A stretch of DNA of 63,567 bases, filler included, from Stramenopiles sp. TOSAG23-6 (taxonomy: Eukaryota), in the NCBI GenBank assembly GCA_900128565.1. It is 15 parts of 15 records of this genome, joined end to end, with 100 filler letters (N's around TTAATTAATTAA, not from the genome) between each part and the next. Parts side by side here need not be neighbours in the genome. Positions count along the whole stretch, not along the records: positions 38,299 to 42,435 come from LT637256.1; 14 more parts are not named here. One strand, given 5' to 3'. Every line of letters begins with the position of its first letter. Position 1 is the first letter of the stretch. The translations under genes and the position numbers were made by a program. This document shows positions 24,574-54,646 of this stretch, piece after piece. Under the pieces are notes generated by a model that saw only the letters and a program-made list of their open reading frames with translations, was not told the origin of the DNA and made no database searches.

Positions 24574-25467
24574 ATGATGAAGTTTATACTATGTACAATG
24601 TTACTCTTATCTTCATATGTATGTCATATTGAAGCAGCTACTCGGACGACTCAATCTCCAGAACCAGAACCAGAACCATATTTGGAAGGAATTGCTTTAA
24701 GCAACTCAACAGACGTGCTAATCGAAATTTCCGAAATACCTGAACTAGCATCTAAAATAATCGGTCATCTCTCTTTCTCTGACATGGCAAATCTTTTCTA
24801 CACAAATAAAAGCATGCGAAACATGTTGATAATCGATGGTATTTCAAAAGTCAGGAACATTGAGACCACATTTCGACAAGAAATAAGAGAAATGATCAAC
24901 CCCCGCAACGTTGTATTAAACTGGCTAAACTATGTAGACATAATTCACAGAATGGTTTTTCAGAATTATAAACTCTCCGAAGATACAACGGTAAGACTTA
25001 GACGAAGGGTTGAAGGCGAAAGCCATGATCAATTTTTAAGCCGTACAAAAAGTGTGTTGGAAAGAGAAGCTTTGATTGCATTGTATAATAATACAAATGG
25101 AGATCGTTGGAAGCGTAAAGATAATTGGAACACAGATACGAATATTTCTATGTGGCATGGAGTCACGTGTACTGAAGGAGGAAATGTTACTGAATTAAGG
25201 TTGGAATCCAACAATCTATCTGGTTCAATTCCAAGTGAAATTGGTCAACTATCAAATCTCGTACTTTTGGACTTTCAAAAAAACAAACTATCTGGTTCAA
25301 TTCCAAAGGAAATTGGTCAACTAATAAATCTCGAACACTTGTACTTGGATGACAACGAACTCTCTGGCTCAATACCAAAAGAAATTGGTCAAATAACAAA
25401 GCTCGAATATTTGTACTTGGGAAACAACAAACTATCTGGTTCAATTCCAAAGGAAATTGGTCAACTA
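24574..25467 (+). CDS. Leucine-rich repeat protein with signal peptide and a possible F-box-like segment, partial
   Basis: EREALIALY..TNG..W cap and 24-aa repeats LSGSIPKEIGQL..L..L.L..N. Confidence 0.9.
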
Positions 25468-25672: not shown

Positions 25673-26236
25673 GTTTGCGTGAACCTGCTCCACCATCACT
25701 TGAACAATTCGATTTGGATGAAAACTTCGCCAGTGACCGTTTACGTCTCGCACAACTCACTAATAAATGTTTGGGACCGGGTACCACCGAATCTGACTTG
25801 GAGTATTACATTAAAGAATGTGGAGAGATTCTAGGCGTTACTGCAAAGCTTCAGCACATATGTTTTCAATATTGAATTTTTTTTTTTTTTTTTTTTTTTT
25901 TAATACGAAATTTCATACCTAACAAAAAAAAATCAAAAAAAAAAATATTTCTTCACAATACATGATCGGCAAGAAGCGAAGCATATATTAGAATATGTTG
26001 TTCGTCAATTAATCAATTTTAAAAAACTTAATCAAAATGAAAATGAGGAAAAGTTGCCAGATTATCATAATATGGCAGGTCATGGGAAAGCAGGCATAGG
26101 AGACCATCGTAATAAACTTGAAAAATTATCAAGTCAAGGAAACATAAATGGAAAAAAATTACCAAATATAAGTTCTAAACTCGGCAAATTGGAAGGTAAA
26201 ATTAGTGTGGATGGTGGAAAAAAACTTTTAAAGTAG
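25673..26236 (+). CDS. 3' end of a hypothetical protein (exons 25673-25857 and 25964-26236)
   Basis: Frames join across the element 25858-25963. Confidence 0.6.
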
Positions 26237-27267: not shown

Positions 27268-27343
27268 ATAATATTAGGGTTAGGGCTAATTTTATAAAAA
27301 TTATCATAATATTAGGGTTAGGGCTAATTTTATAAAAAATTAT
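27268..27343. repeat. Two-copy ~38-nt direct repeat containing TTAGGGTTAGGG, between divergent ORFs
   Basis: ATAATATTAGGGTTAGGGCTAATTTTATAAAAAATTAT occurs twice. Confidence 0.85.
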
Positions 27344-28155: not shown

Positions 28156-29712
28156 TTAACCAATCATTCCAGAGTCTCCAGCAAGAGTTTTTAATCGTAA
28201 TTTTATGTGATGTAAATGTTCACGAGGATTTTGAATATTTATTCTCTTTGAAGATGATGTTGAACGTTTCTTTTTGTCTGTCTTTTTGTCTTCTTTTCTA
28301 CAAGTATGAAAATTATTTAAAACATGAGAATCACTCATTTCCCAATCAAATGATTCATCGTTTTTCGTGTCTTCTACAAATGTTTCTCCATGTTTTGTGA
28401 AAAAATATGGTTTAAGTAAAAAAATATCATTAGGTATGAAATTTGGTATAAAAAAAAAACAAAATTCAATTTGAAAACATACATGCTCAAGAAGAGTTTT
28501 CATTGAATATTCAAGTGCATAAGATTTCATTTTCTCACGGCTAAGTTCATCTTGTAATCTTTGAAATGTCAAATGAGCATCATTTGGATCATGACAACCA
28601 AACGAGACTTCCCATTTGATTAAACGCTCTTCACGTTCTGCGAGCTCAAAAAGCAGGCGTTCCTCTGCATCTAATGGACTTTCGATATCGTTTTCTTTCC
28701 GTATACGTGCTTCCTGCAATTTCATTTGATACCTTGCTTGAACTTTACTTTTACGCTGTTTATCTAAGGGTACTGCTGAGCGTTTTGTGTCAATGTAAGC
28801 GTCATTTGCATTTGCTTGGTACATTGGCAAAGAATCGACACTTGGCAAAATTGAATCCGTATCGATGTTTGTACCAGACAAATATCGTGTTTTCTGAGGG
28901 TCAATCCCATCCCAAAAATAGTCCTTGACTCTATCTCTCTCTCTCTCTAATGTAACCGTTTTAAATATAGTATCTACCCCTTCTTCCTTATGATGAAGGC
29001 CTTGCTCATACTCCATCATTTTGTTTTCAAATAATCTTTTCTCATGAGCTCTTGATTTAGCTTTATCATTTTGTTTCTCCATCGCCCGTTTTTCTCGAAT
29101 TTTCATTTCTTTATTGTTGTTTTCTTCATTTCTTCTCATTTTTTCAAGAATTGCCAGTTGTGCTTGTCCTTGTCCTTGTTGAATTTCCAATAGATTTTGT
29201 TGTCCTCCCAACAATAAATTTTCTTCTGTCTTTAACAAGGCTGTGGTTTTCTCTCTTTCTTTCTCCAACTCTGATAAAAGTTTTTTTGACTGTTCTTCTT
29301 CTTCATTCAAAAATTTCAAAACTTTCAAAAATTTCAAAATTTCAAAATTTTTTTTTTTTTTTTTTTTTTGTGCTCTCTCCAATAAAAGTTGTTGTTCATT
29401 CCTTTCAATCGCTAGTTCTCTCTTCAGAAGCATTTGCCTTTCTTTTTCGTCCTTGGAATGTTTCATTCTTTCCAATAAAAATTTCTCTTCTTCTTTTAAA
29501 AAAGCTACATTTTTGTCCCTCTCTCTCTTCAAAACAAGTTTTGCGTCCCGTTCTTGATCTCTCTCCGATAAAAGTTGTTGTTCATTCCTTTCAATCGCTA
29601 GTTCTCTCTTCAGAAGCATTTGCCTTTCTTTTTCGTCCTTGGAATGTTTCATTCTTTCCAATTTCTCTTCTTCTTTTAAAAAAGCTACATTTTTGTCCCT
29701 CTCTCTCTTCAA
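28156..29712 (-). CDS. Coiled-coil repeat protein, 3' part; in-frame family intron at 28390-28482
   Basis: Tandem E/K/R-rich repeats; GAGCAT|GTATGT...CAAAACAT|GGA. Confidence 0.7.
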   Translation of the reverse strand: MKRERDKNVAFLKEEEKLERMKHSKDEKERQMLLKRELAIERNEQQLLSERDQERDAKLVLKRERDKNVAFLKEEEKFLLERMKHSKDEKERQMLLKRELAIERNEQQLLLERAQKKKKKKNFEILKFLKVLKFLNEEEEQSKKLLSELEKEREKTTALLKTEENLLLGGQQNLLEIQQGQGQAQLAILEKMRRNEENNNKEMKIREKRAMEKQNDKAKSRAHEKRLFENKMMEYEQGLHHKEEGVDTIFKTVTLERERDRVKDYFWDGIDPQKTRYLSGTNIDTDSILPSVDSLPMYQANANDAYIDTKRSAVPLDKQRKSKVQARYQMKLQEARIRKENDIESPLDAEERLLFELAEREERLIKWEVSFGCHDPNDAHLTFQRLQDELSREKMKSYALEYSMKTLLEHVCFQIEFCFFFIPNFIPNDIFLLKPYFFTKHGETFVEDTKNDESFDWEMSDSHVLNNFHTCRKEDKKTDKKKRSTSSSKRINIQNPREHLHHIKLRLKTLAGDSGMIG

Positions 29713-29903
29713 ANNNNNNNNNNNNNNNNNNNNNNNNNNNNNNNNNNNNNNNNNNNNTTAATTAATTAANNNNNNNNNNNNNNNNNNNNNNNNNNNNNNN
29801 NNNNNNNNNNNNNCAAAAAAAATCTAAAAATATTTGTTAGGTACGAAATTTCGTACGAAAAAAAAAAATCGATTTTTTTGTAAAAAAAAAAAATAAAACT
29901 TAC

Positions 29904-31157
29904 ATACGTATTTAGTTCATATTGTGGCAAATATTTCACCTTTTTTTTATACTCTGGTGTAGTAATTAATAAAAAGGCCATCGATGCTTGCTCCCATAAC
30001 GAATGATCTATAAAAGGATTAGTATCAGTACCATACACTTTTTCTAGAAACCGAATTGACCACAATGACTTTTTGATAAGAAATACTCCACTATTAATCA
30101 TCAATGCATCCTCAGATATAATTACATCAAAACCAGGATTTTCTAGTATTAGAGTTTCTAAATTTTGTTTAGGATTCATAAAAAATGAATCACAGTCTGT
30201 CCAAATAATCCAATCACCATCGGGAATTTGTTCAAAATATTTTTGTACAACCTTAATTTTACTCCATGCATGAGGTCGTGTGATGTCACTTCTTTTTTGT
30301 TCAATAAATAGATCATAATTATGCAAATTAGCATACATTTTCTTATTTTCCACAGATAATTTTTCTAATTGTGTTTGACTAGGGTCATAATCACACAATG
30401 ACACAATTGTAATAGATGGCCATTCTACTGTTATTTGAATATTTTTAGAGTTTTGTTGGACAATCACATTTTCATCATTATGATCATTTTCATCATTCTC
30501 ATCATTTTCATCATACATTTGTTTATCATTCGTTTTATCAATTTTATAATCATTTTGATCTTTACTTTTATACTGTTGATCACTTTCATCTTGGTACGTT
30601 GAATTGTTTCTCGTGAAAAATATTGAGGCTCCGTGTAACATTGCTGCTTGTTCATTTCTTTTTTTTTTTTTTTTCTTTTCTTGAAAGGATAACTCATCTA
30701 TTAGGACTCTTCCTTTTATCGTCCGCAACGCAAACACCCAACGATTCCACCAGTGTTGAGCAAACTCTGATGGGCGTTTTATGGTACCAATAATAACTGC
30801 TAGTTGAAGATGTTGGAGTGCTTTTTTCCACTGAGGTGGGTTCGAATCAGCAAGGTGACCAGCAATAACAAAATGAGCTATACTTACTTCATTGAAGGCA
30901 TCTAGTATATCATCTAACGATGAAAATTGACGTACCGTTTTTCGTGCTTCGTGGACTTTCATGTGTCGCAGCGTTACTGCAGTATTTTTTCCATTTGCAC
31001 TCCCTGTCCGTTTACAGGAAATATCAGAAGCGTCGCACTCATCAATCCTATCATCAATGTCTTCAACCGCATTCACATTTTTTGAAATATTTATAATCCA
31101 CAAAAAAATAAGAACAACAAGATAATTCCAGGCGATCATTATCGAACAACTGAGCAC
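29904..31157 (-). CDS. Glycosyltransferase family 34 (GMA12/MNN10-like), partial
   Basis: ENKKMYA..HNY, HAWSKI, WIIWTDCDSFFMN, INSGVFLIK.S.WS..FL, WEQ. Confidence 0.9.
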
Positions 31158-31566
31158 TATACACAGTTATTGAATTAATATACTTGTAGCTTTGGCAAAT
31201 GTTGATCACAATTGCTTCTATATATTTTTGGAATACTTTGTACAATATGAAAATCAAATCAATCAAACATCAAAGGTATGAAAAGGCAAAATTAAATTTT
31301 TATTTCAGATATTTCGTGCGTTCCTTCCTACAGTAAACTTTTATTTCAGATATTTCGTGTGTTCCTACGCCTACGGGGACACGGGTGAAAATATCTTTTA
31401 TACCGTTTCATCCTACTGGTCAAAATTGACCGGTCAAAACTATATAGGAATCGTACTGGTTTTAGATTAATTACCTGATATTATACAAAGTCAAGATTGG
31501 ACATTAATCTGTCGCTATTGATCAACCTAATAACAATATAATACGCCAACATATCCAACACAAATC

Positions 31567-32055
31567 ATGAGAACCAGCGAATTGATAAAAGAAATTAAAG
31601 AAATTGGAGAAGAAATTGAAGAAATTGGAGAACAAATTGAAGAAAAAATTAAAGAAGGATTAGAAGGATTTACTCGATATGCTCATGCAATGATCGTATT
31701 CGTGGTATTGCTATGTGTCTGTGCTTTGGCCGATCCCGTTGACTTTATCATTTTCCTTCCAGCTTATCTTAAACATATCATTGATAATAAAAAATTCCAA
31801 GGTCAATATGCTGCTGTGAATGAAAAAGTCAAAGGGCGTAACCCCAATTTCCCAAACCCAGTCGAGAGAAACACTGATTCCACAAAGCAAACCGTGGAAC
31901 CTGTACTATTTAATGAGATTAAAAGAAAGAAGACACTTTTGCCTGGTGTCATGACGAAGATGACCCCAACAAACAAAACAAATTCCAAAAAAAGCAAAAC
32001 AAACTCGAAAAAAAAAAAAAAAAAGAAAAAGACGAATAAAAACAGAAGCGATTAA
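31567..32055 (+). CDS. Hypothetical membrane protein
   Basis: 162-aa ORF with an acidic repeat, one hydrophobic segment and a Lys-rich tail. Confidence 0.5.
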   Translation: MRTSELIKEIKEIGEEIEEIGEQIEEKIKEGLEGFTRYAHAMIVFVVLLCVCALADPVDFIIFLPAYLKHIIDNKKFQGQYAAVNEKVKGRNPNFPNPVERNTDSTKQTVEPVLFNEIKRKKTLLPGVMTKMTPTNKTNSKKSKTNSKKKKKKKKTNKNRSD

Positions 32056-32825
32056 CATGGAAGTGCGCTCATATTAACATGTTTCAAAACATTGTGTCTC
32101 GTTTACACTATAATCTTAATAAATAGCAATACAGCTTTTGTTGAACCCTTCGAGTATCTTTCCAGTGTTGGACGTATCTTTGGATTCCGTACCATTTTTT
32201 TGTAACGGAGTCCAATGATACGTGGAACACTGTATCTTTCTTTCACGTTGAGATTTTTGACCAATTTTTTTATTTAGTTTTTTTTACACAAATCTGTGTG
32301 GTGCATTAGTGTCCATTATAACGAATCAACTACAACTGGTTGGTGCCTTGTACTTTCATGATTTGGATTTTTTTTTCTTTGAAAGGTCCGAAAGAACTGA
32401 CTCAATAAGAAAGGCCAATTTTTTTTTTTTTATTATTTGTTAGGTACAAAATTTACTATGAAAAAAAAAAAAAAATCTAAAAATATTTGTTAGGTATAAA
32501 ATTTACTATGAAAAAAAAAAAAAAAAAAAAAGCCCCAACCCTAGGTAAGCTGAAAAGAAAACCCCTAACCCTAACTACTACATATATTGGATTTTTCCGA
32601 ACGACCTCCGCAATTTTTTTTGTTTTCATTTTTCTTCTTCACACACACACGAAGAAAGAAAGTGAGCCTCAACGATTGTCTTAGATTCTTTTTATATCTG
32701 AACTAGGACTTGTAACAATGACTAGCATACCAGCATAATTCATTACAGTAGCGTTTCTATTTTGGTATTTTTTTCTACAATAGTTTCAAACACGTTCAGA
32801 AAAAAAAAGTCTATTAATTCTTGAC

Positions 32826-33834
32826 ATGGCTTTTGTAAATTTGCCACAAATAAAACTACAAGAAACACGTGGAATAGATAGTGGAATTCGTCAATATATA
32901 AAGGAACAGTTTCACAAACGTTCCAATGCAGATGGTTTACTCTCTCAAGCTGACGCACGTCAATTTTTAATAGATTTGGGTCATTCTTATTCTAATCTTC
33001 CAGCTTCTGTCACTTCATCTTCAAAACTGTCTCGTCAATTTAGCTTTGAAAACTTTTACCATTTATACTTTAGTGATGAACAAATTGACTCCAGACTTTT
33101 TGTTGCAAGTCAACTTGTAATAGCGAATATAAGTGATGGCATTCCACCTTCTATTACATTTTGTGACCCACAAGCTTCACAAAAAAGTCTAGAAAGAGAT
33201 TGTACTTTTTTACCCTTGATTTTTTATTTAAAAAAAAAAAAAAAAAATATTTCATACGAAATTTTGTACCTAACAAAAAAAAAAAAATTTTTTTTTTAAT
33301 ATTTTAAAAAAATTCACAAAACATGTGAAGTTTTAGCCTTTTCAAATTACAAATGGCCAAAGATTGATTATTTTAATAGTAGTACGCCTAATTTACCCAT
33401 TTTAGTGACGCCTCCACTAGTGTGTACCGGGTATCCATCGTTAGAAGTACCCAACCAAACAACACTTAACGTCCTTGAAGATCCTGTAGCAAAACAAAGC
33501 GGATCTTGTATGTTTTTATCATACTTTTTTTTTTTCGAAGAAAATTTTGTACCTAACCAATTTTTTTTTTTTTCAAAAAAAAAATATTTTTCAATTTTTT
33601 TTTTTTTTTTTTTTTTTGTATGAAATTTTGTACCTAAAAAAAAAAAATATTTCACAAAAAAAAAAAAAAATATTTCACAAAAAAACATGGCATAAACATT
33701 GGAGGCCTCGATGGTTATCATTAGATAGTACCACAAGAACTCTCACATTTTATAAGAAAAGCAATAAAAAAGACTTTAATCGACAAATTCGTACGTCTTG
33801 CATTAGACGAGTTGGACCTGTCTCTGAAGCGGAT
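32826..33834 (+). CDS. EF-hand-like/PH-domain protein, 5' part (exons about 32826-33201, 33325-33507, 33689-33834)
   Basis: Spliced KQSGSWHKHWRPRWLSLD...LTFYK is a PH start; frames join across family introns. Confidence 0.7.
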
Positions 33835-33912
33835 GTACATTTTTATTCTGAAATTTCTGAATTTTTTTTTTTTTTTTCATACGAACTTTTGTACCTAACG
33901 AAAAATAATTTC

Positions 33913-33956
<44 letters not shown>

Positions 33957-38198: not shown

Positions 38199-38389
38199 NN
38201 NNNNNNNNNNNNNNNNNNNNNNNNNNNNNNNNNNNNNNNNNNTTAATTAATTAANNNNNNNNNNNNNNNNNNNNNNNNNNNNNNNNNNNNNNNNNNNNTG
38301 GAAAAATATTTAAAAAAAAAAAACTTAAATTTGTTAGGTACAAAATTTTTATAAAAAAATAAATTCGAAATTGATAAAATAAAACGTAC

Positions 38390-41300
38390 ATATTTATGTG
38401 AGATCTAGCACGGGGATATGCCGATGATATTTAGTGAAAAAATATTTCGAAATATTATTTTTGTTAGTACGAAATTTTCATACAGTAAACAAATAAAAAT
38501 TAAAATTGATAATAAAAATTCGTTAGGTACGAAATTTCGTATGAAAAAAATTAAAATTGATAATAAAAACGTACATGGTCTACCCTGAACTTTTGTTGAA
38601 ATCTTCTGAGGAAATACAGGAATTATTCTAGTTTTATTTTTAGTATTTTTAGTATATGCTGATGAAGGCCTCTTATCTTTGATTGGGATGCGTTCCCTAG
38701 AAGAAAAAGTGTTTGTGGTAGATGAAGTATGTATTTTGGAAAAATATTTCAAAAAAAAATCGTTAGGTACAAAATTTACTATAAAACAAAATTCGAAATT
38801 GAAAAAAAAAAAAATACATTTCTACTATTATATCTCGGATGCGCTGAGACTGGTCTATTTCTTCTAGATCGAGCTCTTTCGACAGCTGATGTATTTTGGA
38901 AAAATATTTCAAAAGAAAATTCGTTAGGTACAAAATTTCGTACGAAAAAAAAATTCGAGTTTGAAAAAAAATAAAACAAACATGATCGTGCAGTAGTTGA
39001 TCGTACAAGTCCATAATCATCATTGTTATTTGTGTTTTGCATGTATTGTGAAAAATATTTTTTTTGTAAAATTTGTTAGGTACAAAATTTCGTATGAAAA
39101 AATTTCTTAGGTACGAAAATTAATGTTGAAAACGTACATGAATTTCTTGTGTTGTGAAATCTTTGTCTTGTACGTTTCTTCTATCGCTATGTATTTTGGA
39201 AAAATATTTCAAAAAAAAAACTAAAATTTGTTAGGTACAAAATTCCGTACGAAAAACAATTTCGAATTTGAAAAAAAGTAAAACATACATATCAATCTTT
39301 TCTCCCAACATACCACGTGCTTTTTTGAGTAAATTAGCAGAATTATTTGATATTCGATATACATCATTTTCATCATCATCGTCATTAGGGTTAGGGATTG
39401 GGTGCACATCAATTTTACTCTTTTGTGATGTATTGTTTATGTCCGTGAATGCTTCCTTAGAACCAGTGACGTCATACGATGGATTTTCATGTTTTTCATC
39501 GTTACCATTGTTACCCCTATTCCTGTTGTATTTGTAGAAACCATTTACAGTAATATTTGACATATTTGGAGACTTGGTGCGATGTAAAGGAGCTGTCATT
39601 GGTCGGGAACGACGAAATTCTGAATTATTATTTCGAGATACACATGTATTGTGAAAAAAAAAATATTTTTTTTTGTTAGGTACGAAATTTCGTATGAAAA
39701 AAAAATCGAAATAGAAATTAAAAAAAAAAACGTACTGAGCGCTAATTGACTTTGTGCAAGGTTAGCTTCAAGTTCATTATTCCTACCTTGTAATATTTTC
39801 TGTCGTATATTCGTTTTAGCTACTCTTTTTTGCATTTGTTCAACTTCTACTCTTTGTTTTGATAATTTCGATTTCCAAAAAGCGAGATAATGTATTTTGG
39901 AAAAATATTTCAAAAAAATCTAAAAAAAAATGTTAGGTACAAATTTTCGTACGAAAAAAAAATTCGACTTTTTTGTAAAAAAAAAAATAAAACATACATG
40001 TTCGTTACTATTTGCAATTACTTTGACTTCTGCAGCAGAAAGTGGTCTTGCCCCAGAAAGTCTCTGTTTCAAATTGTTTCTAGGATTCTTTATTTTACTC
40101 ACACTATTGCTTTCATCGGACTCCAAAGTTTCCATCTCTGCCTTTCGTCTTTCCTTTTCAGCCCGTGTATTTTGGAAAAATATTTCAAAAAAAAAAAACT
40201 AAAATTTGTTAGGTACAACATTTCGTACGAAAAAAAATCGAATTTGAAAAAAAAATAAAACATACGTACTGCTGCAGCCTTTCGACGTGCCTTTAAGACA
40301 CCCAGTTCCTTGCGCAGGCTTGCTGTTAACCTTGTTTCTTTTGTTAGTTGTTGCGTACATTTCTTCATCTTTGCTTGTAACACATTTACTTGTTTCTTCA
40401 ACCTTTCAGCAAGTTTTTCTGCACGAAGTCTTTTTTTTTCGGCAATGGATACACGATTAGCTTTCAAGTTAAACCGAAACGATCGAATAGTTTCCTTTGC
40501 TTGATGAAGTTTACTTGCAAGCTTTGCATTTTGAGCTTCTATCATTGGAAGTTTAGATAAATCCACTTCATACCCTCGAAGCTCTTTATTTTGAGCCACA
40601 CGAAGTCTATGCAATTCTGTGGCGTTTTCTATTTTAAGACTCTTTATTTCATCTTTTAGTTGTGGTATTTCCTTCTGCTGACAAAGGACAAGCTCTTTCT
40701 GTTTCTGGACTTGTTTGACCAATTGTTCCAAGATATCCTGATGAGCTTTGTCTTGAGTTCTGCTTTTTTTTTCAACCTTGGACAGAGCGTCTTCCGCAAG
40801 CTTGGTCCGTTTTCGATAATTTTCGGTTGCTTCTAAAGATTTCGAAAGTTTTTCCTGAATACTTTGTATATCTGCTGTGGAGTTATCAATGCTATTACGT
40901 AATCTACGAGTATGTTTTTCGTGTCGTTCAACAACAGCCCCAGTGTAGTTACGCCTCCAACGTTCCCGTGCTTGTTGGACCTGAGGTCGAACCACATCTA
41001 AAAAGTCGTCTTTTGACATTGCTGCTGCAGACTCTTCTACTAAATTTATTGATGTATCCAACTCTAATATTTCATGCAAAACTTCAAGACCACGTTCACA
41101 TCCCATTATCCTGTTTTCTAGACTAAACTTTTGTCTTTGTGCCACTTTTTTCTGAGTGTTTGCCACATCGCGCTCTTTCGAGACTATTTCAAGTTGTTTA
41201 CGGAGTTTTTTTACTTCTTTTTGTAGTTGATCCGAAATTGTAGACTTTGTTGGTTTTTTTTCTTCAAAAGACTCGCTGTTTTCTTGTACTCCTAAATTAA

Positions 41301-41475
41301 TACTTGATGATGCAATACTTGCAGAAGCATCACTTTTATCTTGAATAGCGTCAGCTTGGAGAATTACCGGAATGGGTGTTGGTAATGTTGAATGTATTTC
41401 TTTCTCCGTTATTGATACTTTCTTCTTCTTTGATACCTTTTTCTTCTTCTTTCCATTTATTGATGTCCTTGGCAT
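38390..41475 (-). CDS. Coiled-coil protein with many short exons separated by about 9 family introns, partial
   Basis: Long first exon 41475-40266, then mostly short exons; RP.SA motifs. Confidence 0.7.
40165..40265 (-). mobile_element. Introner-like intron, GT...AC, with AC direct repeat
   Basis: GCAGTAC|GTATGT...CCAAAATACAC|GGGCT gives AVRAEKE. Confidence 0.8.
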
Positions 41476-41675
41476 AATGAATAATATAAAGAAACAACGT
41501 CCTCAACTCAACTGACTTTAGTATTTTGTTATGAAATTCAAAAAGTCCAATTTTGGGAATGCATCTCTTTTGTTACATGTAACCGTTTTTCAACCGTTAA
41601 AAAAATATAAATTAAGAAAATAAATTAGAAATTCAAAAAAACGTTTATTGTACACGACTACAATCATTTTTGAAA

Positions 41676-42375
41676 TTACATTCGTTGAACACCAGATGTT
41701 CTGCGTCCAAACAAATGTATTTGGTCATCTAATGGTGATTTAATTTTTCTTCGCGATATTGCTTCAAAACTAAGAGCAAGAATATTTCGTGTAGATTCAA
41801 TATCAATGATTCCGTCATGTATTGTATGAAAATATCTTTAGAAAAAAAATGTTAGGGTTAGGGTTAGGATTTTTGTACGAAAATATTTTTAGAAAAAAAT
41901 TGAAAGTGAATGTTGAAAGCATACATCCCATAAACGACCTGTGGAATAAAGAGCACTTCGAACATTGCTCTCTATATGTTCTTCTTCAGTTTTGTTATTG
42001 TTTTTCTCATTTGCTTTCATTATTTTTGCTGTTTTTTCAGAACTAATTGAGGCATGTATTTTGGAAAAATATTTCAAAAAAAAAATCGTTAGGTACAAAA
42101 TTTTTATAAAAAAATAAATTAGAAATTGAAAAAAAATAAAACATACATTTGGCCACATAAACAGAAATGAGGGACTCATCCCTCTACCTGACATGATAAA
42201 AGTATTGTGAAAAAATATTTTTTTTGTTTTTACTTTTTTAGTAAAAAAAAATCGTTTGGTACAAAATTTTGTATTTAAAAAAAGAAATTCCCATGAAAAC
42301 GTACAATTACCACTTCCAACACTTTCTCCGATAATTAATGTAATTTTCGGTATTCGAACCGTCGCTACTGCGCTC
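41676..42375 (-). CDS. MCCC2: Methylcrotonoyl-CoA carboxylase beta-like, C-terminal part (exons 42375-42305, 42199-42147, 42053-41925, 41816-41676)
   Basis: PKITLIIG.S.GSGNFIMSGR..SP.FLFMWPNASIS...YSTGRLWDDGIID...TR..L...GVQRM*. Confidence 0.88.
41817..41924 (-). mobile_element. Non-canonical intron GT...AT in MCCC2
   Basis: TGGGAT|GTATGC...CAATACAT|GACGGA restores WD|DGIID exactly. Confidence 0.92.
42054..42146 (-). mobile_element. Non-canonical intron GT...AT in MCCC2
   Basis: CCAAAT|GTATGT...CCAAAATACAT|GCC restores WPN|ASIS. Confidence 0.92.
42200..42304 (-). mobile_element. Non-canonical intron GT...TT in MCCC2
   Basis: GGTAATT|GTACGT...CACAATACTT|TTATC restores GNFIMSGR (family GNYGMCGR). 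Confidence 0.9.
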
Positions 42376-42535
42376 ATGGATTTTGGAAAAATATTTCAAA
42401 AAAAAATCGTTAGGTACAAAATTTCGTACGAAAAANNNNNNNNNNNNNNNNNNNNNNNNNNNNNNNNNNNNNNNNNNNNTTAATTAATTAANNNNNNNNN
42501 NNNNNNNNNNNNNNNNNNNNNNNNNNNNNNNNNNN

Positions 42536-44456
42536 TTATACCATTTATATCATTAGGGTTAGGGTTATCATTAGGGTTAGGGTTATCATTATCATTCATA
42601 TTATTAGGGTTAGGGTTATTATTAGGGTTTATATCATATATATCTGTATCTATATTTGTAACTGATGAATTTTGAATTGTTGTACCTTTTTGTTTTTGAT
42701 TTTCGTCTTGTGCTGAAAAAACTGAATTCGTAGTTAATTTCGTACCTAATGGAATTGTCTGTTCTGCTTGTTTAATTAGTTTATCATTTTTTCTTTCTAT
42801 TTGATTGTATTTATCAATTTCAACATCTTTAATTATTTCATCATTTTTTTCTTCTATTTGATTGTATTTATCAATTTCAACACCTTTAATTATTTCATCA
42901 TTTTTTTCTTCTATTTGATTGTATTTATCAATTGCATTTTGAACCCTTTTTTCTGCTGCTGTTAATCCATTTTCATTTTGATTTTGATTTTCATTATGAT
43001 TTTGATTTTGATTTTCATTATAATTTTCATTTTGATTTTCATTATGATTTTGATTATAATTTTGATCTAAATTTCGTAATAATTCCAGTGTATTTTCTAC
43101 AACAGCATTATATTCTTCACCATCAAAAAATGAATCATCTAATATTGATGAAGAATCAGAATCATCTTCCAATGTAGAAGTGGCAGAATCAACAACGCCA
43201 ACATTTAATGTATTTTGTAAAAATATTTCAAAAAAATTTTTGTTAGGTACAAAATTTCGTACGAACAATAAATTGGAATTTGAAAAAAAATAAAACATAC
43301 ATTGTTCTGCAATTTCTGAAATTTTATTTGTCATACTACTTGTTGTTGTTGTTGTTGCTGTTGTTACTGTTGTTGTACTAGTGGTAGTTGGAGTAGACAT
43401 ATCCTGTATTGATGTTTTGGATATTTTGTTTTTTATTTTTTTTTCAAGATTTTGTTCATTTATTTTTTTTGTTGAAAGTATTTTGTCATTCGAAGAAAAT
43501 TGATTATTATCAAGGCACTCATTTGCAAATCTAGAATTGAGATTTTTTGTGAGTGTGAATTCAATATTACTGACATCAAATTGAGATGATTCTAATTTTG
43601 ATTCTAACTCTGCAAATAATTGAGCCAAATGATTTCTTTTCCATTTTGAAGAAGATTTCGTGTTTTTTTCATCCTTTTTTTTTTGAAATGGCGTTTTTGT
43701 TGATAACAGTTTCGTATTTTTTTCAATATTCTGATCATTTCCCCCATTGTGTATACTATTTCTAGTAGTAGTAGTAGCAGTAGTAGCACTATTAACCGTA
43801 GTAGTATCAAGGGAATTGGTATGATTTGATAGTTTTGTATAATTTATATTTTGTTTTTCTTGTTTTTGATACAATGTACTAGGGTTAGGGTTGGGAGGTG
43901 ATCGTAGAGACATTGGAATAGATGCAAATGAAGAAGGTGAACCTCTTGATGCATTAAGGAATGATTTCGATAACCATGATTTCACTAAAGACCCTTCATC
44001 AATCAGAGATACTACTTTTTCATTATTTTGATCATTTCGTGTTTCTTGGAATTCCATACTCAAGGTAGGGTTAGGGTTAGGCGTAGATAATCCACTATGA
44101 GTTGTAGTAGGGTTAGGTTTAGACATTTGTACACCTCCTAGAATTGGTGATAAAATATTATTACCAAAAATATCTGGACGATTTTCATCATTAGATTGTT
44201 TTTTAACTTTTCGACGTACTTTATTCACTAAACTAACCATTCTACGTATTTTTTCTTCTTTTTTCGTGTCATCTCGATTGGCTAAAAAATAACGTTGTAA
44301 TTGAACATTTGGTGATTCTTCCCTCCACACAACCCCACCACGTGCACCGGCTAGATTATGATTCATAGTATTTATAACATTTACGTTTGATTTATTACCA
44401 TTTTGGGACAACGATTCGACATCTTGTCGTGGTGTTAACGTTACCATTTTGCCCAT
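42536..44456 (-). CDS. Low-complexity N/T/K-rich hypothetical protein, partial; in-frame family intron at about 43208-43300
   Basis: 658-aa ORF with internal repeats and NPNP tracts. Confidence 0.6.
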
Positions 44457-48031: not shown

Positions 48032-50700
48032 TTATTTACGTTGAAGTGATAAACGAGGATTAACACTAGTTTGACTTCTTTGTAATACAACGGGTGGTGG
48101 TGCACTTCCACTACGCAAAATACGTCTCTCAGAGTTAAGCCCCTGCATAGTTTGACTTCGATTAAGATGAACTGACGGGGGTGGAGGTGGATGCAGTTGA
48201 TGATTACTATTATTATTATTATTAACTTCTAAATAAGAATGAACAGTATTTAGAAATTGTTTTGGGACTACATGTATTTTGGAAAAATATTTCAAAAACC
48301 AAAGAAATCGTTAGGTACAACATTTCGTACGATAAAAAAATCGAATTTGAAAAAAAAAAAATAAAACATACATTGTTCCTTGCAGATTCAGGTCCAGCGA
48401 ACCTTACAAGATGTTGCAAATCTATAATACAACGTTGAAATCGTTCACGAGCATAAGCAACACCTTCCCCAGCACCCCATCGAAAATGCCAACATCCTCT
48501 TCCTCTTGGAGCTGGCCCACATTCTCTGAAACTTCCTTTCGTCACAAGCATTTGTCGTTGTACAGTGCTAAGTAAAATAGTTTTATTATCACGACTTCTT
48601 TGTTTTACCGTTGCTAACCAAGTCGGTGCAATTCCATTAGGCGTCGATCTTGACATTCGTAACAGGAAAGTTCCTTGATTTTCCCCTGAATCTTTTAATA
48701 TTTCACTATATTGACTCACTGGAAGCCATCCATGAAGAAGTTTTGTTGGCTTTTGTATAACCCATAAACCTTGAATTTCTTCAATCATTTTCATCCAAAG
48801 TGTCCAGAAATAGACCCAAAATCTTTCAAATTCAGCAAATGTCACTATCAAATCAATATCATTTGATTTATTATTTATATTATTTATATTGGTATGATCT
48901 TTAGATGTTTTTTTTGGAGGGAACCATTTTGGGTATCCATCAGCGACTAAACCGAAGAGTTCAGATGGAATCAGAGGGCGTTGAGTCGATGCTAAAGGAA
49001 ATGATGAATTAAAATGATTACATAGACTTTGGGCAAGAACAGACCATTGTGTAGTCGTTGTTGTAGTCATTTGAGACCAAAATGCTGATGCTGTATTTGC
49101 AATAGGATATGGAGTGGTGGGTATAACTATAGACTCTGTATTATTGCTAGCATTTCCTATTTTTGATACAGTATTATGAGAATCAAGAGGGAATGGATCT
49201 GATGATGATCGATATTGTATTGGTTTTTGAAAATTAGCAACCGTTGATCGAATTAAAGATATATAAGCTTCTCTATCATCAAGTAAATTTGTATGTTTTT
49301 GTAGTGCAACTTCATACACAGCTTTAGGTATACCTTGAAATGCTTTAATTAAATTACTTTTTGAAAATCTTTTAAAATCAGTCATTTCGGTCCAATCATT
49401 CCATTCATCAGAATCCATATTTTGTTAAACAGTATCTTTACACTTTAAAATTTATTAGGTAAAACATTTTGTTACAAAAAAAAAATACATTTGAACAATA
49501 TATTTGAACAATACATTTGAAAAACAAATGTTACAAGTAGGTACAAAATTTGTTTTACGAAAAAACAAAAAAATCAACTTCAAATGATGTCAATAAAAAC
49601 GTACATATCATCAATTTCATCACTTCGCATTTGATCCATTTCTATCAAAGTTAACATATTTGAGCATAAAGAATCAAACAACTCTGCACAATGAATATCA
49701 TGGAGACGTCCTATATGTACCACTTTATGAGGGATCAAAGTAGGAGGGGATACACATGTTATAATTACTTTTACATATCGTGTACTTGATAATTTTTGTA
49801 AAAAATCTGAAAAACATCGAGTAAATATTTTTTCTGTAAAGATTTCGTGATATGAACGAGGTGTTTCTATATTATTCTGACTAGGATATACTAAATTTTT
49901 GTTTGTAAATGTACCACTAGGATGACCATGTATTTTGCTTTTACTCTCTGGACTATTTACATTATTTACAGTTGTATACAACAAGTGTTCACATGTATTG
50001 TAAAAAAAATTAAATTCGAAATTTGTTAGGTACAAAATTTCGTACGAAAAAAAAAATAAATTTGAAATTCATAATGAAAACATACAACCATCTATAAATA
50101 AAAGTAATTTATCACTAGAATCTCTTCCAAACATTTTTTGCATTTCTAATAATAATTTTTGGGCACAAAGTATCCCTTTCCTATTAATTCTATTATCTAT
50201 ATTTATTTGTCCGGATTTTTCATTTTTATTACCATTTTGAAGATTTGTTTCATCTTGAATATTTTGTATTTTAACTTTACGTGATGTATTATTCAGTAAT
50301 ATCTGTGAAAAAAATGGTACAAATTGTGATTCACATAACTCACTTATTGCATCGGTCATACTTAGTGAATAACCATATGTTTGTTTTGTACTTATTTGGT
50401 ATTCCTTGACTTCATGTATTTTGTTTAATATTTTACACATTGTTTTTTTTTTGTTAGGTATGCATTTTGTAAAAAAACAAAAAACAAATCCTAAAAAAAT
50501 AAACTTTTGAAATGAATGATGAAAACATACATGTACTGAAGGCAAACGCAATGGTCCATTAAATGTCACCATTCGTGCATGTTTGAAATGACCAATTCTT
50601 TGACCAATATACTCAATAGACCGTAAAGCGAGTGTAGTTTTACCAATTCCCCTATTACCCACAATCGCAATACATTGACAATTTTCAGATCTTCGAGAAT
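48032..50700 (-). CDS. Multi-exon protein with a P-loop (GNRGIGKTT) and a C-terminal SH2-like domain, partial
   Basis: Walker A, LLLFIDG (Walker B-like), and HGWL...GTFLLRMSRSTP.GIA.TW. Confidence 0.65.
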
Positions 50701-51115
50701 TTACACAGGTAGCAAGTTCATATATATATTGTGAAAAAATATTTTTTTTTTTTGGTTTTTGGAGTACAAAAAAATGTTAGGTATGAAATTTTCATCGTAA
50801 AAAAAATAATAAAATCCATGATTGATGAAAACAAAAAAAAACAAAAAAATATAATAAAATCCATGATTGAGAAGCTTATATATCTTTAATTCGATCAACG
50901 GTTGNNNNNNNNNNNNNNNNNNNNNNNNNNNNNNNNNNNNNNNNNNNNTTAATTAATTAANNNNNNNNNNNNNNNNNNNNNNNNNNNNNNNNNNNNNNNN
51001 NNNNTTTTTTTTTTTTTTTTTTTTTTTTTTGAAAAATGTGTTAGGTACAATATTTCGTATGAAAAACAAACACAAAAAAAAAAAAAAAAAATCAAAATTC
51101 ATATTGAAAACGTAC

Positions 51116-51864
51116 ATAACATTCAGATCACTAGTTGTCTTTTTTTTAAGGGTTTGAACAGAAAGAACATTTGAAAAAGGTCCCCATCCTTTGGCATTGA
51201 CTACTCGAACTCTTAATAAATAAGTTTGTTGAGATTTTAACCCAGTCAGGAGATATTCTTGACGACCTACAATACGTACCGCTTGCCATGCACCAACAAA
51301 TCTAAAACCAAATTGTAACTCAAAGTGCAAATTAGAATTGTCTTCAACTTCATCCACATCATCAGCTGCAGGAGCCCATCTTACAAATATAGTATTTTCT
51401 CCGCGTTCAATAACTGTAAGACCTTTTGGTTTATGAGGGGCCCGTTTGACAGACAGTGCCTTTGTGACTTCTTTTCGGGCAAGAAAATTTTGTAGTCGAT
51501 CAATTACTGCCATGGTATTTCTGTCTTCTTTACATTGTTGTGCGTATATTCTATGGAGATCAGCAAACTCCAAGATATCCTGTTCAGTTAATACGCGACG
51601 AACATTACAGAGTTCGCCTTCTCTTTTCTTTAACACTTCTAAAATGTGACTTCCTCTTTCCTCCGAAACACCAGGTTTCTGAGAAACAATGCTACTTATA
51701 GTTGGTGCAGGCTTCATCGCACCCGCTGGTACAGGAACAAAAGAATTTAGTTCAGCCAAAGCAGGCGGATCTTCCATTGGTTCAGTTACAATGGATGTAT
51801 TAACATTGGCAGAAGATGAAATAGACAAAGAAGGAGTTTCGGCTGTTTGAGAAACATCAGGCAT
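51116..51864 (-). CDS. Fibronectin type III domain protein, 5' exon
   Basis: APHKP.GL, IFVRW, LTGLK..QTYLLRVRVVNAKGWGPFS. Confidence 0.85.
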
Positions 51865-52384
51865 TTAAAAAACAAAGGAATCACGAGGCAAAATAAGCCC
51901 CAGCTAATTCGACTACTACTCGAGTTTGATAATTATTGATTCCTTTTTTAAAACAGATTGAAGTATAATTCAAAATAATAAATATATTAGACTCTAATGA
52001 ATACACTACCACAGCAAAATTCTATTATTCTTCGTAATAGGAAGTGAAATTGTGTGATTACTCTCTTCTTTTCGCTCTCGAGTGGTCATAATAATTTTAT
52101 ATCATGACTTCGCTTAATAATAATAATAATAATCGACTTTTATTTTTTTGAGTCTAGGGTTAGGGTTACCGAACTATAATGAAAGTGACTTGAGTGAAAT
52201 TCAGAATTCTTAGTAACAATATAAACATTATAATCATATTGAAAAACTCTAAAAATTATACAATATGTTTATAGTTATATATATGGCACTCCAATAATTT
52301 GTGTGCTGCAAGGATATTTTTCTTTCTACCTTCTACTTCTAGTCAAAGAATTAATAATCTTAGTCTACACCATTATAATTGTAA

Positions 52385-53509
52385 TTACTTTTTTTCACCA
52401 CCACTGTCACCGCTTTGAGTAGCATTTCCTTTGCCACCTCTGCTACCTTTGCCGCGGCGGCCACCGCGAACCCTGCGGTTTTTTGTTCTTTGTACGACGG
52501 GATTTTTTGTTCTTTGTACGACGGGATTTTTTGTTCTTTGTACGACGGGATTTTTTTTTCTTTGTACGACGGCATTTTTTTTTCTTTGTACGACGGGCTT
52601 TCTTAGTGCGACGGGCTTTCTTAGTGCGACGGGCTTTCTTGTTTTAAGTACGACGGGCTCGGTCGTAATAGTGACAGTTTCTCCCCTAATTGTGATACCC
52701 ATACACCTATCAGCTGCATCTTGTTCTTTAAAAGTAACAAATGCTCTCCCCCAAAACCCATTTATTTGTTGTAAAGGATTCAAATCCTCTATTGTACCAC
52801 CACAGTTCTCTTCTAAAACAGCACGAAGATATGCTTTGAAAAGTTTGCGTCCAGAATTATTGGGTCTGAAGCGGGAGGCTTCAGGTGTAGTGTGTTGTAG
52901 CTTTACGAATACTTTACGTGGATCGTCACGTGCAATTGGATGATACGGTTCTGCTGTCCGTGGAAATTTTGGAACTGTAAATTTTAGAGGTGCTTCTGCA
53001 GCAGACGCTATGGGATCAGCGTTTTTCTTATCTTCCTCTAAAAGATCCTCCGCCATTCCGAAGGCGAGTTCGAGGCTTTGTTCGAGGATTTCTTGTTCGA
53101 GGCGTTCGAGGCGTTGGCGTTCTTGTTCGAGCCGTTGGCGTTCTCGTTCGTCGCTGCTGCGTTTCCAACTCCCTTCGTCACCGGTTTCATCAATGACACT
53201 AGACGGCGGCCCCCAAATGTCCGCCTCCCCCGTTAGATGCTGGATTGACAGCGGTGAAGGAGATCTCACTGGTGAGATTGTAGGTGTCCTCAGTAGTGTA
53301 TTAGTTGCCTGAACAACATTTTCATCAGCAGGAAAAGTAGCGGCATCACCACCACCAAATGCACCAAATCCACCATCAGCAGCACCAGGGTAAAAAGCGT
53401 CTGCATCAACATTTAAATGCATAGCATTAGCATCTTGAAAGATGCCATGCATAGCATTAGCAACTTGATAGATGCCCATAAGCACCATCAAAGATATAGA
53501 AGTCTTCAT
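52385..53509 (-). CDS. RRM-like protein with putative signal peptide, basic tandem repeats and an RGG-like tail
   Basis: RKVFVKL (RNP2-like), GRAFVTF (RNP1), repeats PVALRK and PVVQRTKN, RGGRRG. Confidence 0.7.
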   Translation of the reverse strand: MKTSISLMVLMGIYQVANAMHGIFQDANAMHLNVDADAFYPGAADGGFGAFGGGDAATFPADENVVQATNTLLRTPTISPVRSPSPLSIQHLTGEADIWGPPSSVIDETGDEGSWKRSSDERERQRLEQERQRLERLEQEILEQSLELAFGMAEDLLEEDKKNADPIASAAEAPLKFTVPKFPRTAEPYHPIARDDPRKVFVKLQHTTPEASRFRPNNSGRKLFKAYLRAVLEENCGGTIEDLNPLQQINGFWGRAFVTFKEQDAADRCMGITIRGETVTITTEPVVLKTRKPVALRKPVALRKPVVQRKKNAVVQRKKNPVVQRTKNPVVQRTKNPVVQRTKNRRVRGGRRGKGSRGGKGNATQSGDSGGEKK

Positions 53510-53776
53510 ATTGTTGATATATATGTAATATTTACCGAATGAACAACAACCCCGCATCCCTAAAATTATAACCGCCGAGCGCTATATATTTTTTGAGTTC
53601 AGTTCCTCGCGAAAATTTTTCTTTTTTCGTGTAAAATATTATGTCGATTAGATTCTCTCATGACAAATTGTAGAAAATATTTAACTTTAGTTCAATAGAA
53701 CGCTACTAGTAGTCACATTCATTTTTCTAGTAGTACAAAAAAACTATACTACTTATCGTCGAATTATCTTGGTAGC

Positions 53777-54490
53777 ATGGCTCTCGTACCATTTTCTTAT
53801 AATAGCCCATTTGCATCTGATAAGCTACAACTACCCGTGAGACTATTTAGATTTGGGGACCGCACTGTGAATATGCAGCAGGGTTGGCGAGCAGATGGGA
53901 AAGGAGGTTCTCAACTAGGCTTTGGCAAAAGTGTTTATGATGCTAGTTTTGTACTTGCAGATTTTGTGTACAATCATTGTAAAGATTTTCTCGGGAGACG
54001 TGTCGTAGAGGTTGGTGCTGGTTTAGGTTTAGTGTCTATTGTAGCTTCAATTTGTGGGGCTTCTGAAGTGTGTTCTACTGACGGGGACTCTGAGCTTGTG
54101 GCTTCAGATGGGCTTTTATCCATTAACCTCGATAGAAATCTTACAAAAACAGAACGCAAGCGAGTGACTACTTCCCAGTTGATATGGGGAGATAAAAAAG
54201 CCACGGCTGCACTACAACCGCCTTTTGACTTTGTTGTAGCATCTGATGTCGCGGCTTGTCCGTATGCGGACTCACTGGACCTTCTAGCCTATAATCTTAA
54301 ATCTCTTAGTGGTCCAAATACTATAGTATATTTATCATACAAACCTAGAAATTCTTTAGAAAAAAAATTCTTTAAAAAGATAAATACTTTTTTTCATATG
54401 GAGTTGGTATCAAACTCTTTACTTCACAAAGATTTTGTACAGTCTGATATTGAATTATTTCGTTTACGCCTTCGAGACAATGTTAAATAA
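53777..54490 (+). CDS. METTL21-like (Methyltransf_16) protein lysine methyltransferase
   Basis: G.SVYDASFVL, VVEVGAGLGL, STD, L.WG, FDFVVASDV. Confidence 0.9.
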   Translation: MALVPFSYNSPFASDKLQLPVRLFRFGDRTVNMQQGWRADGKGGSQLGFGKSVYDASFVLADFVYNHCKDFLGRRVVEVGAGLGLVSIVASICGASEVCSTDGDSELVASDGLLSINLDRNLTKTERKRVTTSQLIWGDKKATAALQPPFDFVVASDVAACPYADSLDLLAYNLKSLSGPNTIVYLSYKPRNSLEKKFFKKINTFFHMELVSNSLLHKDFVQSDIELFRLRLRDNVK

Positions 54491-54646
54491 TAATTAATGT
54501 GTATATAAATACTAGTAAAATATAATTTTTTTTTTCTAAATTTTTTTTTATACCAAACAAATTTCAAAGGCAATTCATTTGATTTTACAAAATCATACTT
54601 TAGTTTTACACAGTGTAAAGTCAATTATAAAGTCAAAAATATATCT

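Follow-up and report, generated by a model that had tools for sequence, protein, structure and literature searches.

A family of repeated, introner-like introns with apparently non-AG 3' ends in a marine stramenopile genome

The stretch of DNA analysed here (the window, positions 1-63567) comes from the assembly GCA_900128565.1 of Stramenopiles sp. TOSAG23-6 and consists of 15 contigs of 4116-4163 bases each, which are ordered by size and do not form one stretch of chromosome; the linkers between them have the form N44-TTAATTAATTAA-N44 (e.g. 4164-4263 and 8427-8526). The contigs at 1-4163, 4264-8426, and 8527-12689 were identical to one another and the contig at 59452-63567 was a repeat of 51005-55129, so that in counts over the whole window some features appear twice or three times. 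Once the duplicates were set aside, about 50 kb of unique sequence remained. The G+C content was 24-40%, and the window was readable in the standard genetic code, with long open reading frames (ORFs). Fourteen of the 28 longest ORFs had Pfam matches, all to ordinary eukaryotic families (kinase, plant-type leucine-rich repeat (LRR), aldo-keto reductase, leishmanolysin, PI3K accessory domain, NIF phosphatase, and others). The subject of this study is a short element that recurs within genes of the window, exemplified by the copy at 40165-40265 on the minus strand of the contig 38299-42435. An earlier note had proposed that this copy descends from a miniature inverted-repeat transposable element (MITE) and that its splicing removes one copy of a duplicated dinucleotide.

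Read on the minus strand from 40265 to 40165, this copy is a putative 101-nt intron. It opens at its first base with the 5' splice-site motif GTATGT (40260-40265) and continues with a T-rich stretch, CGTACGAAATGTTGTACCTAAC, a second T-rich stretch, and the 3' motif CCAAAATAC (40167-40175), with the proposed cut 2 nt after that motif and the bases AC in between. Its core GTACCTAAC (40208-40216) contains CTAAC and is branch-site-like. The last two exon bases (40266-40267) and the last two intron bases (40165-40166) are both AC; these are the proposed first and second copies of the duplication, the second of which would be removed together with the element. Such pairs are written below as the two exon bases before an element and its own last two bases, for example AT/GT. 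The 3' end was assessed both from the sequence and with a frame test, in which the downstream exon was resumed k = 0, 1, or 2 nt past ATAC and the open codons on each side were counted (x/y). Here k=2 gave 79/80, and k=0 and k=1 gave 46/80 and 46/22. Canonical use of an internal TTTTAG in the same element was read by hand and led into a stop.

The element is one of many. A 25-nt core motif had 44 matches in the window against none in 100 shuffles, which bears out the earlier description of a repeated family, and 31 of these 44 matches lay in non-duplicated contigs. Curation yielded 44 full copies from 12 unique contigs, and several of the statistics below were computed on 42 of them; the ~50 kb of unique sequence thus holds at least 44 copies, in genes of unrelated families. 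Forty-two of the 44 were 89-125 nt long, the remaining two being a copy of 123 nt and a 181-nt composite, and composite introns reached up to 193 nt. Alignment of 42 copies gave a single consensus, consisting of exon AT, then GTATGTTTT ... AAATTTTGTACCTAAC ... AAATATTTTT(C)CAAAATAC AT, then exon G. Two subfamilies were apparent: subfamily A carried GTATGTTTTA at the 5' end and CCAAAATAC at the 3' end, and subfamily B carried GTACGTTTTC and CACAATAC. The 5' and 3' variants were tightly linked (15:1:2:13, Fisher p = 7e-6), which shows that whole elements are copied as units. Pairwise identity among copies had a median of 65% and a maximum of 90%.

Copy number in nature appeared to be very high. 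In a seawater DNA metagenome (X3), summed contig depth was 667-42,486 over element bins against 2.5-8.5 over unique exon bins, a ratio in the hundreds to thousands, which points to very many copies, with depth being a rough guide to which relatives may contribute. Contig ends also often fell within an element. Element bins were equally over-represented among RNA-library contigs (X6, X9), with summed depths of 1,000-11,000 against 0-4 on exons, an excess that could reflect stable excised introns, unspliced RNA, or DNA carry-over. A 22-mer of the core had no matches in genome_contigs or in viral_contigs. A 16-mer searched against public metagenome contigs hit at least 118 loci, of which three passed a loose flank filter and none was a real copy, a 16-mer being too short for this purpose.

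Several lines of evidence indicated that the elements are introns. Their orientation followed the gene strand, always in the sense direction, and switched with the strand inside the contigs 17051-21210 and 29814-33956. Direct evidence came from a comparison with RNA and DNA contigs that was carried out on the contig 38299-42435, and the junctions reported are those among the joints listed; portions of this contig that lacked RNA cover are uninformative on splicing either way. In record 18 of X8, position 39734 was joined to 39641 with 92 nt skipped, which corresponds to removal of the element 39644-39735 (minus strand, CA/AT) written in another register. In record 25 of X9, 41924 was joined to 41815 with 108 nt skipped, corresponding to the element 41817-41924 (minus strand, AT/AT). 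X8 and X9 are metatranscriptome assemblies of two different studies. On the DNA side, record 7 of X3 spanned 41817-41924, and records 1 and 2 of X3 entered 39644-39735 from opposite sides.

The two junctions together narrowed down the borders. The CA-flanked junction at 39644-39735 permitted the registers GT-AT, TA-TG, and AC-GT, and that at 41817-41924 permitted GT-AT, TA-TG, TG-CA, and AT-AC. Only GT-AT and TA-TG were common to both, and these shared registers together with the GTAYGT start place the intron borders at GT...AT. AT-flanked copies could formally be written AT...AC, in the manner of U12-type or U2-type AT-AC introns; this register was ruled out by the CA-flanked, RNA-verified junction, and the 5' motif is GTAYGT rather than ATATCC, the U12-type 5' consensus. 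At 39644-39735 the exon CA was retained and the intron AT removed, so it is the 5' copy that the mRNA keeps when the two dinucleotides are not the same. In the intron 41817-41924, an AG lying 16 nt past the last CTAAC was bypassed in the RNA.

Reading frames pointed to the same 3' end in most other copies. In 33 of 42 copies the longest open frame resulted from the end two bases past ATAC, and this end tied with another in 3 more; by chance one third would be expected. Across the element 20090-20212 (plus strand, TT/TG), which splits a NIF phosphatase domain into profile positions 2-59 before it and 107-159 after it, the two halves came back in frame under this rule. The remaining splice signals were ordinary spliceosomal ones, the 3' end excepted. 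GT stood at the start of 39 of 42 copies, as GTATGT in 19 and GTACGT in 10 (29 of 42 together), and CTAAY was present in 40 of 42, located 32-55 nt ahead of the 3' end. The 3' motif ATAC was found in 29 of 42, and the first base of the downstream exon was G in 24 and A in 11 of 42. An unused AG lay between branch motif and 3' end in 12 of the 40 CTAAY-bearing copies. The terminal dinucleotides of the 44 copies were AT in 33, TT in 4, AC in 2, GT in 2, and TA, AA, and TG in one each, so the earlier observation that the acceptor dinucleotide varies held up.

From this evidence it is very probable that the elements form an introner-type intron family with non-AG 3' ends. The borders are GT-NN (GT-AT for the most part), and AG plays no role in selecting the 3' end; the non-AG cut probably falls 2 bases past the element and takes the duplicated dinucleotide along. 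The motifs argue that a U2-type spliceosome likely does the cutting. As to introners as a class, similar copies occurred in large number as introns of unrelated genes, and splicing was seen directly for two of them; canonical GT/GC-AG sites, as found in the introner families described so far, were absent from both RNA junctions, which were non-AG.

A number of observations limit this interpretation or otherwise bear on it. The RNA support consists of two low-depth contigs (depth 2 and 2.9), and for the other 42 borders the basis is reading frames and analogy. In the frame test, six of 42 copies did not favour the +2 end. The composite intron 597-771 fits the rule only with a weaker GT four bases inward, being off by one otherwise, and several copies have a downstream in-frame AG as an alternative end, as from 14079 to 13979. 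Altogether 28 candidate GT-AG pairs were listed; the two for 39735 were refuted by RNA and the remainder may be alternative ends. No gene for a small nuclear RNA (snRNA) was detected in the window, nor any Rfam family. Queries with the exons 40267-41502 and 14820-15527 gave no matches in transcript-derived protein databases. No introns requiring AG were seen in these contigs, an absence that falls short of proof.

The second question was whether the dinucleotide at the two borders is a duplicated target site. The coordinates and pairs given earlier were all recovered as described, namely AC/AC at 40165-40265, TT/TT at 1590, 2066, and 42200, and AT/AT at 894, 2324, 3684, 41817, and 42054. Across the set, the two exon bases equalled the last two element bases in 26 of 44 copies, compared with 19.15 +/- 1.98 when exon-flank and terminal dinucleotides were re-paired at random (p = 0.001). 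The claim that matching exceeds the AT/TT bias thus stands, with an effect smaller than it looks: 21 of the 26 matches are AT/AT, and 18 would be expected from independent preferences for AT in the exon (24/44) and at the element end (33/44). Non-AT matches numbered five (four TT/TT and one AC/AC) against 1.16 expected (p = 0.0008). Leaving out the doubtful copies 597, 2066, and 14079 gave 24 of 41 matches (p = 0.015), of which 3 were non-AT where 0.56 would be expected (p = 0.006). In the set with strong frame support, 19 of 32 copies matched, compared with 14.6 expected (p = 0.007). Flank/terminal matches were not in excess at five other registers, and a 3-nt repeat was not apparent either (7 matches between the 3-nt flank and the last 3 nt against 6.5 expected). 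The ATG register had 16 matches against 11.9 expected (p 0.024), because the downstream exon starts with G in so many copies.

The divergence of the matching copies was informative as well. Matching copies lay nearer to the family consensus than mismatching ones (median 0.83 vs 0.71, Mann-Whitney p = 0.003), and from the tertile closest to the consensus outwards the matches were 12/14, 7/14, and 7/14. This pattern by divergence is what a decaying target-site duplication predicts. Counting against a duplication, identity to the consensus is partly a proxy for subfamily A, and only 3-5 non-AT cases, from ~50 kb, underlie the excess of matches. The mismatches at 1416, 15528, 25858, and 33508 are single-base changes and each proved synonymous in the inferred frame, in agreement with the earlier note; over all single-base mismatches, 5 of 12 were synonymous, which is not clearly above chance. 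Of the 18 copies that mismatch, 12 retain the terminal AT and only 4 the exon AT, and since the terminal AT is the better conserved of the two, it may be a 3' splice signal or the element end.

The strongest competing account builds on this last point. It holds that the family is a GT-AT introner without any duplication, in which the terminal AT is part of the element or its 3' signal and the exon AT a separate site preference. Such an element would spread by a non-duplicating route, for example reverse splicing followed by reverse transcription and recombination, and the TT/TT and AC/AC pairs would be products of chance or curation. The independent AT preferences already come close to the AT/AT count observed, two of the five non-AT matches sit in ambiguous composite introns, the inverted ends span just 4 bp, and no transposase was found (see below). 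Against it, non-AT matches exceeded the shuffles even in the strict sets (3 vs 0.5-0.56, p ~0.007). The exon flank was also more often AT, or matching, in the copies nearest the consensus, which an exon and an element varying independently would not predict, and the copies at 1590, 42200, and 40165 are clean cases with strong frame support. I regard this non-duplicating account as possible and rather unlikely, and lean towards the dinucleotide being a target-site duplication of an element that spreads as DNA.

The terminal sequences were then considered for hallmarks of a transposon or of a structured RNA. The short inverted ends GTAT...ATAC described earlier exist, being perfectly complementary over 4 bp in 20 of 42 copies; their weight as a transposon signature did not survive scrutiny, as they are only 4 bp long, overlap the 5' splice consensus, and show no covariation. 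Terminal inverted repeats of MITEs typically measure 10 bp or more, and an inverted repeat this short is no evidence for a MITE. The family is short, non-coding, and high in copy number, as MITEs are, and it has no terminal inverted repeats of at least 10 bp. No transposase family was detected among the 28 long ORFs scanned, in keeping with the earlier note, and within the window, the part of the genome covered, neither an autonomous copy nor an empty site was seen. AT is also not known as the target-site duplication of any transposon superfamily that makes 2-bp duplications, Tc1/mariner producing TA. A MITE-like origin is therefore no more than a reasonable working model, the ends being 4 bp long and the excess of matches coming from 3-5 non-AT cases.

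A longer helix can be drawn, in which the last two exon bases plus GUAU pair with AUACAU and are followed by UUU with AAA, and this raises a second alternative: structure-guided, non-spliceosomal removal as proposed for euglenids, with AUGUAU-AUACAU pairing and cuts staggered by 2 nt. In AT-flanked copies of subfamily A the last two exon bases and GUAU can indeed pair with the last six intron bases. Minimum-energy folding of 58381-58510 produced such a helix, and that of 42048-42152 gave a comparable helix between the two ends, with the register shifted (GUAUGU with ACAUGC). Overall, 78.7% of the cells of the proposed helix can pair. That figure was 78.8% in shuffled pairings and the covariation score was 0.077 against 0.078, so there was no covariation, and the folds of six copies were not significant (z-scores -1.07 to +0.97). 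Subfamily B lacks the helix, and TT/TT and AC/AC flanks cannot pair: they are direct repeats rather than complementary ones, AT/AT being unable to tell the two apart, and RNA pairing of the dinucleotides thus does not explain them. In Euglena, too, the 3' cut is described as lying 2-3 nt further from the helix than the 5' cut (PMC12501133). The euglenid type is without the strong GTAYGT and CTAAC motifs found here, and the Euglena signature N3-CDG...CH'G-N5-6, with its pairing of CAG (+4 to +6) and CTG (-8 to -6), was absent from the consensus, in which the 5' GT motif is conserved. With neither significant structure nor covariation, the defining features of the euglenid type are missing, and this mode of removal is improbable. 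It is more improbable still that the elements are not introns at all and represent amplification or assembly artefacts or sequences eliminated at the DNA level, with the RNA contigs derived from element-free DNA: the contigs are short, N-bearing, and often broken inside elements and RNA libraries can contain DNA, but independent DNA contigs from a 2024 seawater metagenome hold the same elements at the same places (X3 record 7 and records 1 and 2), among the contigs listed those lacking an element all come from two RNA libraries of two studies, and the sense orientation, conserved splice-like motifs, and frame rule all speak against it.

The mechanism that would account for these results starts with the insertion of an element as DNA, with AT as the favoured site and TT or other dinucleotides used less, and with 2 bp duplicated in the process. 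Each copy brings its own GTAYGT, GTACCTAAC, T-rich tract, and a 3' motif ending in CCAAAATAC or CACAATAC. A strong 5' splice site opens with the G at the element's first base, which puts the 5' cut immediately ahead of the element and after the first duplicate. Its branch motif and T tract would recruit the ordinary spliceosome, and the 3' cut would be made 2 nt past ...AATAC, as observed directly for two copies and consistent with the frames of most others. The second duplicate would leave with the element, and the coding sequence would be restored in the mRNA without a scar. Because the last two bases would come from the target, they would vary, and AG would play no part. Of the earlier proposal that splicing removes one copy, removal from the first G to 2 nt past ATAC is thus backed by two junctions and by frames, and the duplication itself is plausible. 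Taken as a whole, the statement that these are introners with GT-NN borders, a +2 nt rule, a 2-bp target-site duplication, and scarless removal has a modest balance of the evidence in its favour. A wider version, in which a single DNA transposon that makes 2-bp target-site duplications is the source of nearly all introns of the host, the splicing machinery has co-evolved to cut by position past ...AAUAC and not at AG, and every insertion is erased scarlessly, is put forward tentatively and may well be wrong.

Transposon-derived introns with non-canonical ends occur in Fritillaria, Amoebophrya, Polarella, and euglenozoans, and such introns are the best living models of burst intron gain and of splicing adaptation. 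By analogy, the nearest precedent appears to be Fritillaria borealis with its MITE-derived introns (Henriet et al. 2019, as covered in the review PMC11282704 and in PMC7789003). According to the review, these are likewise repeated, transposon-like introns at species-specific positions with non-AG 3' ends (AC, AT), in which the 3' end copies the preceding exon bases (TAC); splicing, reportedly by the major spliceosome, takes out the intron along with one copy of the repeat (PMC11282704). They differ in having a non-canonical 5' end as well (AG-AC, AG-AT), in their reported inverted repeats, and in belonging to an animal (PMC11282704), whereas the family described here has a textbook GTAYGT 5' end, a 2-nt repeat, and 4-bp inverted ends in a stramenopile protist. 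The Amoebophrya strains A25 and A120 offer another marine protist with many repeated non-canonical introns and direct repeats over the exon/intron borders; a MITE-like origin was suggested by the authors, who give the splicing mechanism as unknown and did not detect U1 snRNA (PMC7789003). The direct repeats there are 3-5 nt long, inverted repeats of 8-20 nt form hairpins, and both borders vary (PMC7789003), in contrast to the conserved 5' site and branch motif, missing hairpin, and 2-nt repeat of the present family.

Introners of Micromonas pusilla and Aureococcus anophagefferens, and those of the wider introner surveys, resemble the family in that one short element occurs in many genes in the sense orientation, supplies one splice site, and has a target-site duplication at the other border (PMC11282704, PMC12130899). 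These introns are GT/GC-AG, with the AG co-opted from a duplication of at least 3 nt (PMC11282704, PMC12130899), whereas the present family ends without AG and passes over one that is available. The nonconventional and 'intermediate' introns of euglenids and the noncanonical introns of hemistasiid and eupelagonemid diplonemids share non-GT-AG borders with short direct repeats, a 3' cut offset by 2-3 nt from the end pairing, a next exon that often starts with a purine, and a proposed MITE origin (PMC6221363, PMC12501133, PMC12621601, PMC4770533). They are described as lacking U1 complementarity, as having a CAG/CTG helix or GC-rich ends, and as being released as circles (PMC6221363, PMC12501133, PMC12621601, PMC4770533); the present family differs in its GTAYGT and CTAAC motifs, AT-rich ends, non-significant structure, and stramenopile host.

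In a recent introner survey, a family whose splice sites were unfamiliar was retained only when transcript or RNA-seq alignments bore out its splicing; neither MAST (marine stramenopile lineages) nor stramenopiles are mentioned in the main text of that survey (PMC12130899). The literature search found no paper joining 'introner' with MAST terms, and in two MAST genome papers (one of them PMC5778133) a term search of the main text found introns only in the gene-prediction method of one paper. What may be new is the combination, in one introner family, of a canonical 5' half with a 3' end that does not depend on AG and is perhaps set by a target-site duplication; nothing comparable was found reported for this lineage. 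The known cases thereby extend to a heterotrophic stramenopile near MAST-3, an uncultured lineage that is abundant in the ocean. The case is unusually clean: with a canonical 5' site and branch motif, the family departs from convention in its 3' rule alone, which isolates the question of how a 3' splice site is chosen without AG. If the wider version above holds, there would be an AG-independent, element-templated 3' splice-site rule in a protist far from tunicates, dinoflagellates, and euglenozoans, and one more independent example of a spliceosome adjusted so as to neutralise a transposon. The proposal is directly testable because single-cell assemblies, metagenomes, and metatranscriptomes of the organism are public. 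Gene finders that assume GT-AG would be expected to break most genes of such genomes, and low gene counts or apparent pseudogenes in related assemblies may need another look. In this respect, Table 1 of PMC5778133 lists far fewer genes per Mb in MAST-3 than in MAST-4, and the text of that paper mentions 'pseudogenized' dynein genes in MAST-3A.

The assignment of the host drew on sequence matches. The sequence of 38299-42435 was present in seawater metagenomes, seawater metatranscriptomes, and two small DNA runs of one organism. A bifunctional folate enzyme encoded at 23361-24308 had 94% identity to a EukProt record with a name starting GSMAST32, and the next named matches were mostly diatoms, at 64-70% identity. 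For a second protein of the window the nearest Atlas cluster was mostly Oomycota, which is weak evidence. The host is most likely a marine stramenopile close to MAST-3, judging from these similarities. A marine diplonemid had first been suspected, in view of the published noncanonical introns of that group, and was rejected on the strength of the folate enzyme matches. The contig that encodes the folate enzyme (21311-25467) holds four closely packed long ORFs on alternating strands, one without a Pfam match and the others matching a regulator of microtubule dynamics, the folate enzyme, and an LRR protein. It carried an element fragment at its start only, and no complete element inside any of the four ORFs, which shows that not all genes carry elements.

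The remaining copies are given here with their pairs, the borders having been placed by the frame test where nothing else is said. On the plus strand of the first contig lay 275-392 (AT/GT), 894-986 (AT/AT), 1416-1509 (TT/TA, a synonymous mismatch), 1590-1707 (TT/TT, k=2 64/80), 2324-2415 (AT/AT), 3474-3581 (TC/AT, with a GC 5' end), and 3684-3784 (AT/AT). Further plus-strand copies were 25858-25963 (AC/AT, with an AT 5' end and a synonymous mismatch) and 33202-33324 (TT/AT). The minus-strand copies of 12992-16243 were 12992-13109 (AT/AT), 13226-13348 (GG/AT), 13603-13707 (TC/AT), 13988-14079 (TG/AA, with a candidate in-frame AG 9 nt on, at 13979), 14425-14515 (AA/AT), 14712-14819 (AT/AT, in a gene with a PI3Ka domain according to Pfam), 15528-15652 (AT/AC, a synonymous mismatch), and 16135-16243 (TA/AT). 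The stretch 17560-20367 contains many single N bases, and the frame test was uninformative for the minus-strand copy within it (17607-17708, AT/GT).

Further copies on the minus strand comprised 28390-28482, 38729-38817, 38889-38981, 39189-39288, 39890-39997, 42054-42146, 43208-43300, 48272-48371, 50414-50530, 57224-57342, and 57771-57892 (all AT/AT), 42200-42304 (TT/TT, k=2 30/80), 49993-50085 (TT/AT, a synonymous mismatch), a degenerate copy at 50724-50842 (TT/AT), 56381-56486 (AT/AT, for which the frame test does not favour k=2), 56620-56741 (AT/AT, with a GGGTTA repeat near its 5' end), 57519-57641 (TT/AT, containing an N run), and 58387-58504 (AT/AT), the upstream exon of which matches the leishmanolysin family in Pfam. 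In seven of 42 copies the length is divisible by three and the upstream frame meets no stop (14712-14819, 28390-28482, 38889-38981, 42054-42146, 42200-42304, 43208-43300, and 50414-50530). Retention of these seven would add a Phe/Leu/Lys-rich peptide without truncation, and ORF finders run through them.

Four introns are composites with a second, partial copy. The plus-strand intron 597-771 combines a full copy with a 5'-truncated second one, and its borders are ambiguous. In 2066-2258 (plus strand) the flank is TT and the candidate ends 2156, 2219, and 2258 are all TT, again by the frame test. The intron 33508-33688 (plus strand, TT/AT, a synonymous mismatch) has two cores and a k=2 result of 69/80, and 39041-39137 (minus strand, AT/AT) also has two cores and a frame test that does not favour k=2. 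Fragmentary copies also occurred outside genes: the core search found two tandem core fragments without 5' or 3' end motifs at 32440-32520 (minus strand), in a probably non-coding stretch between two plus-strand ORFs.

Telomere-like hexamer arrays lay inside two of the introns, at 41852-41875 (in 41817-41924) and at ~56700-56730 (in 56620-56741). The three tandem CCTAAC units at 41852-41875 amount to three tandem branch-site motifs, and record 7 of X3, from seawater DNA, had extra AGGG/TAGGG letters there, which indicates that the repeat number varies in nature. TTAGGG/CCCTAA arrays were also found within reading frames (e.g. 20406, 27274-27312, 32563, 39385, and 42553-42604), where they encode Asn-Pro runs (NPNPNP) in several unrelated ORFs. 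Other repeats within coding sequence included a 24-nt tandem repeat at 52431-52628 (duplicate 60878-61075) in a 398-aa ORF, which encodes a repeated basic octapeptide near the C-terminus, and two 9-nt periodic arrays with the units AATAATGAA and AATAATACG at 2683-2917 (and in the duplicates), inside the long exon 2416-3473.

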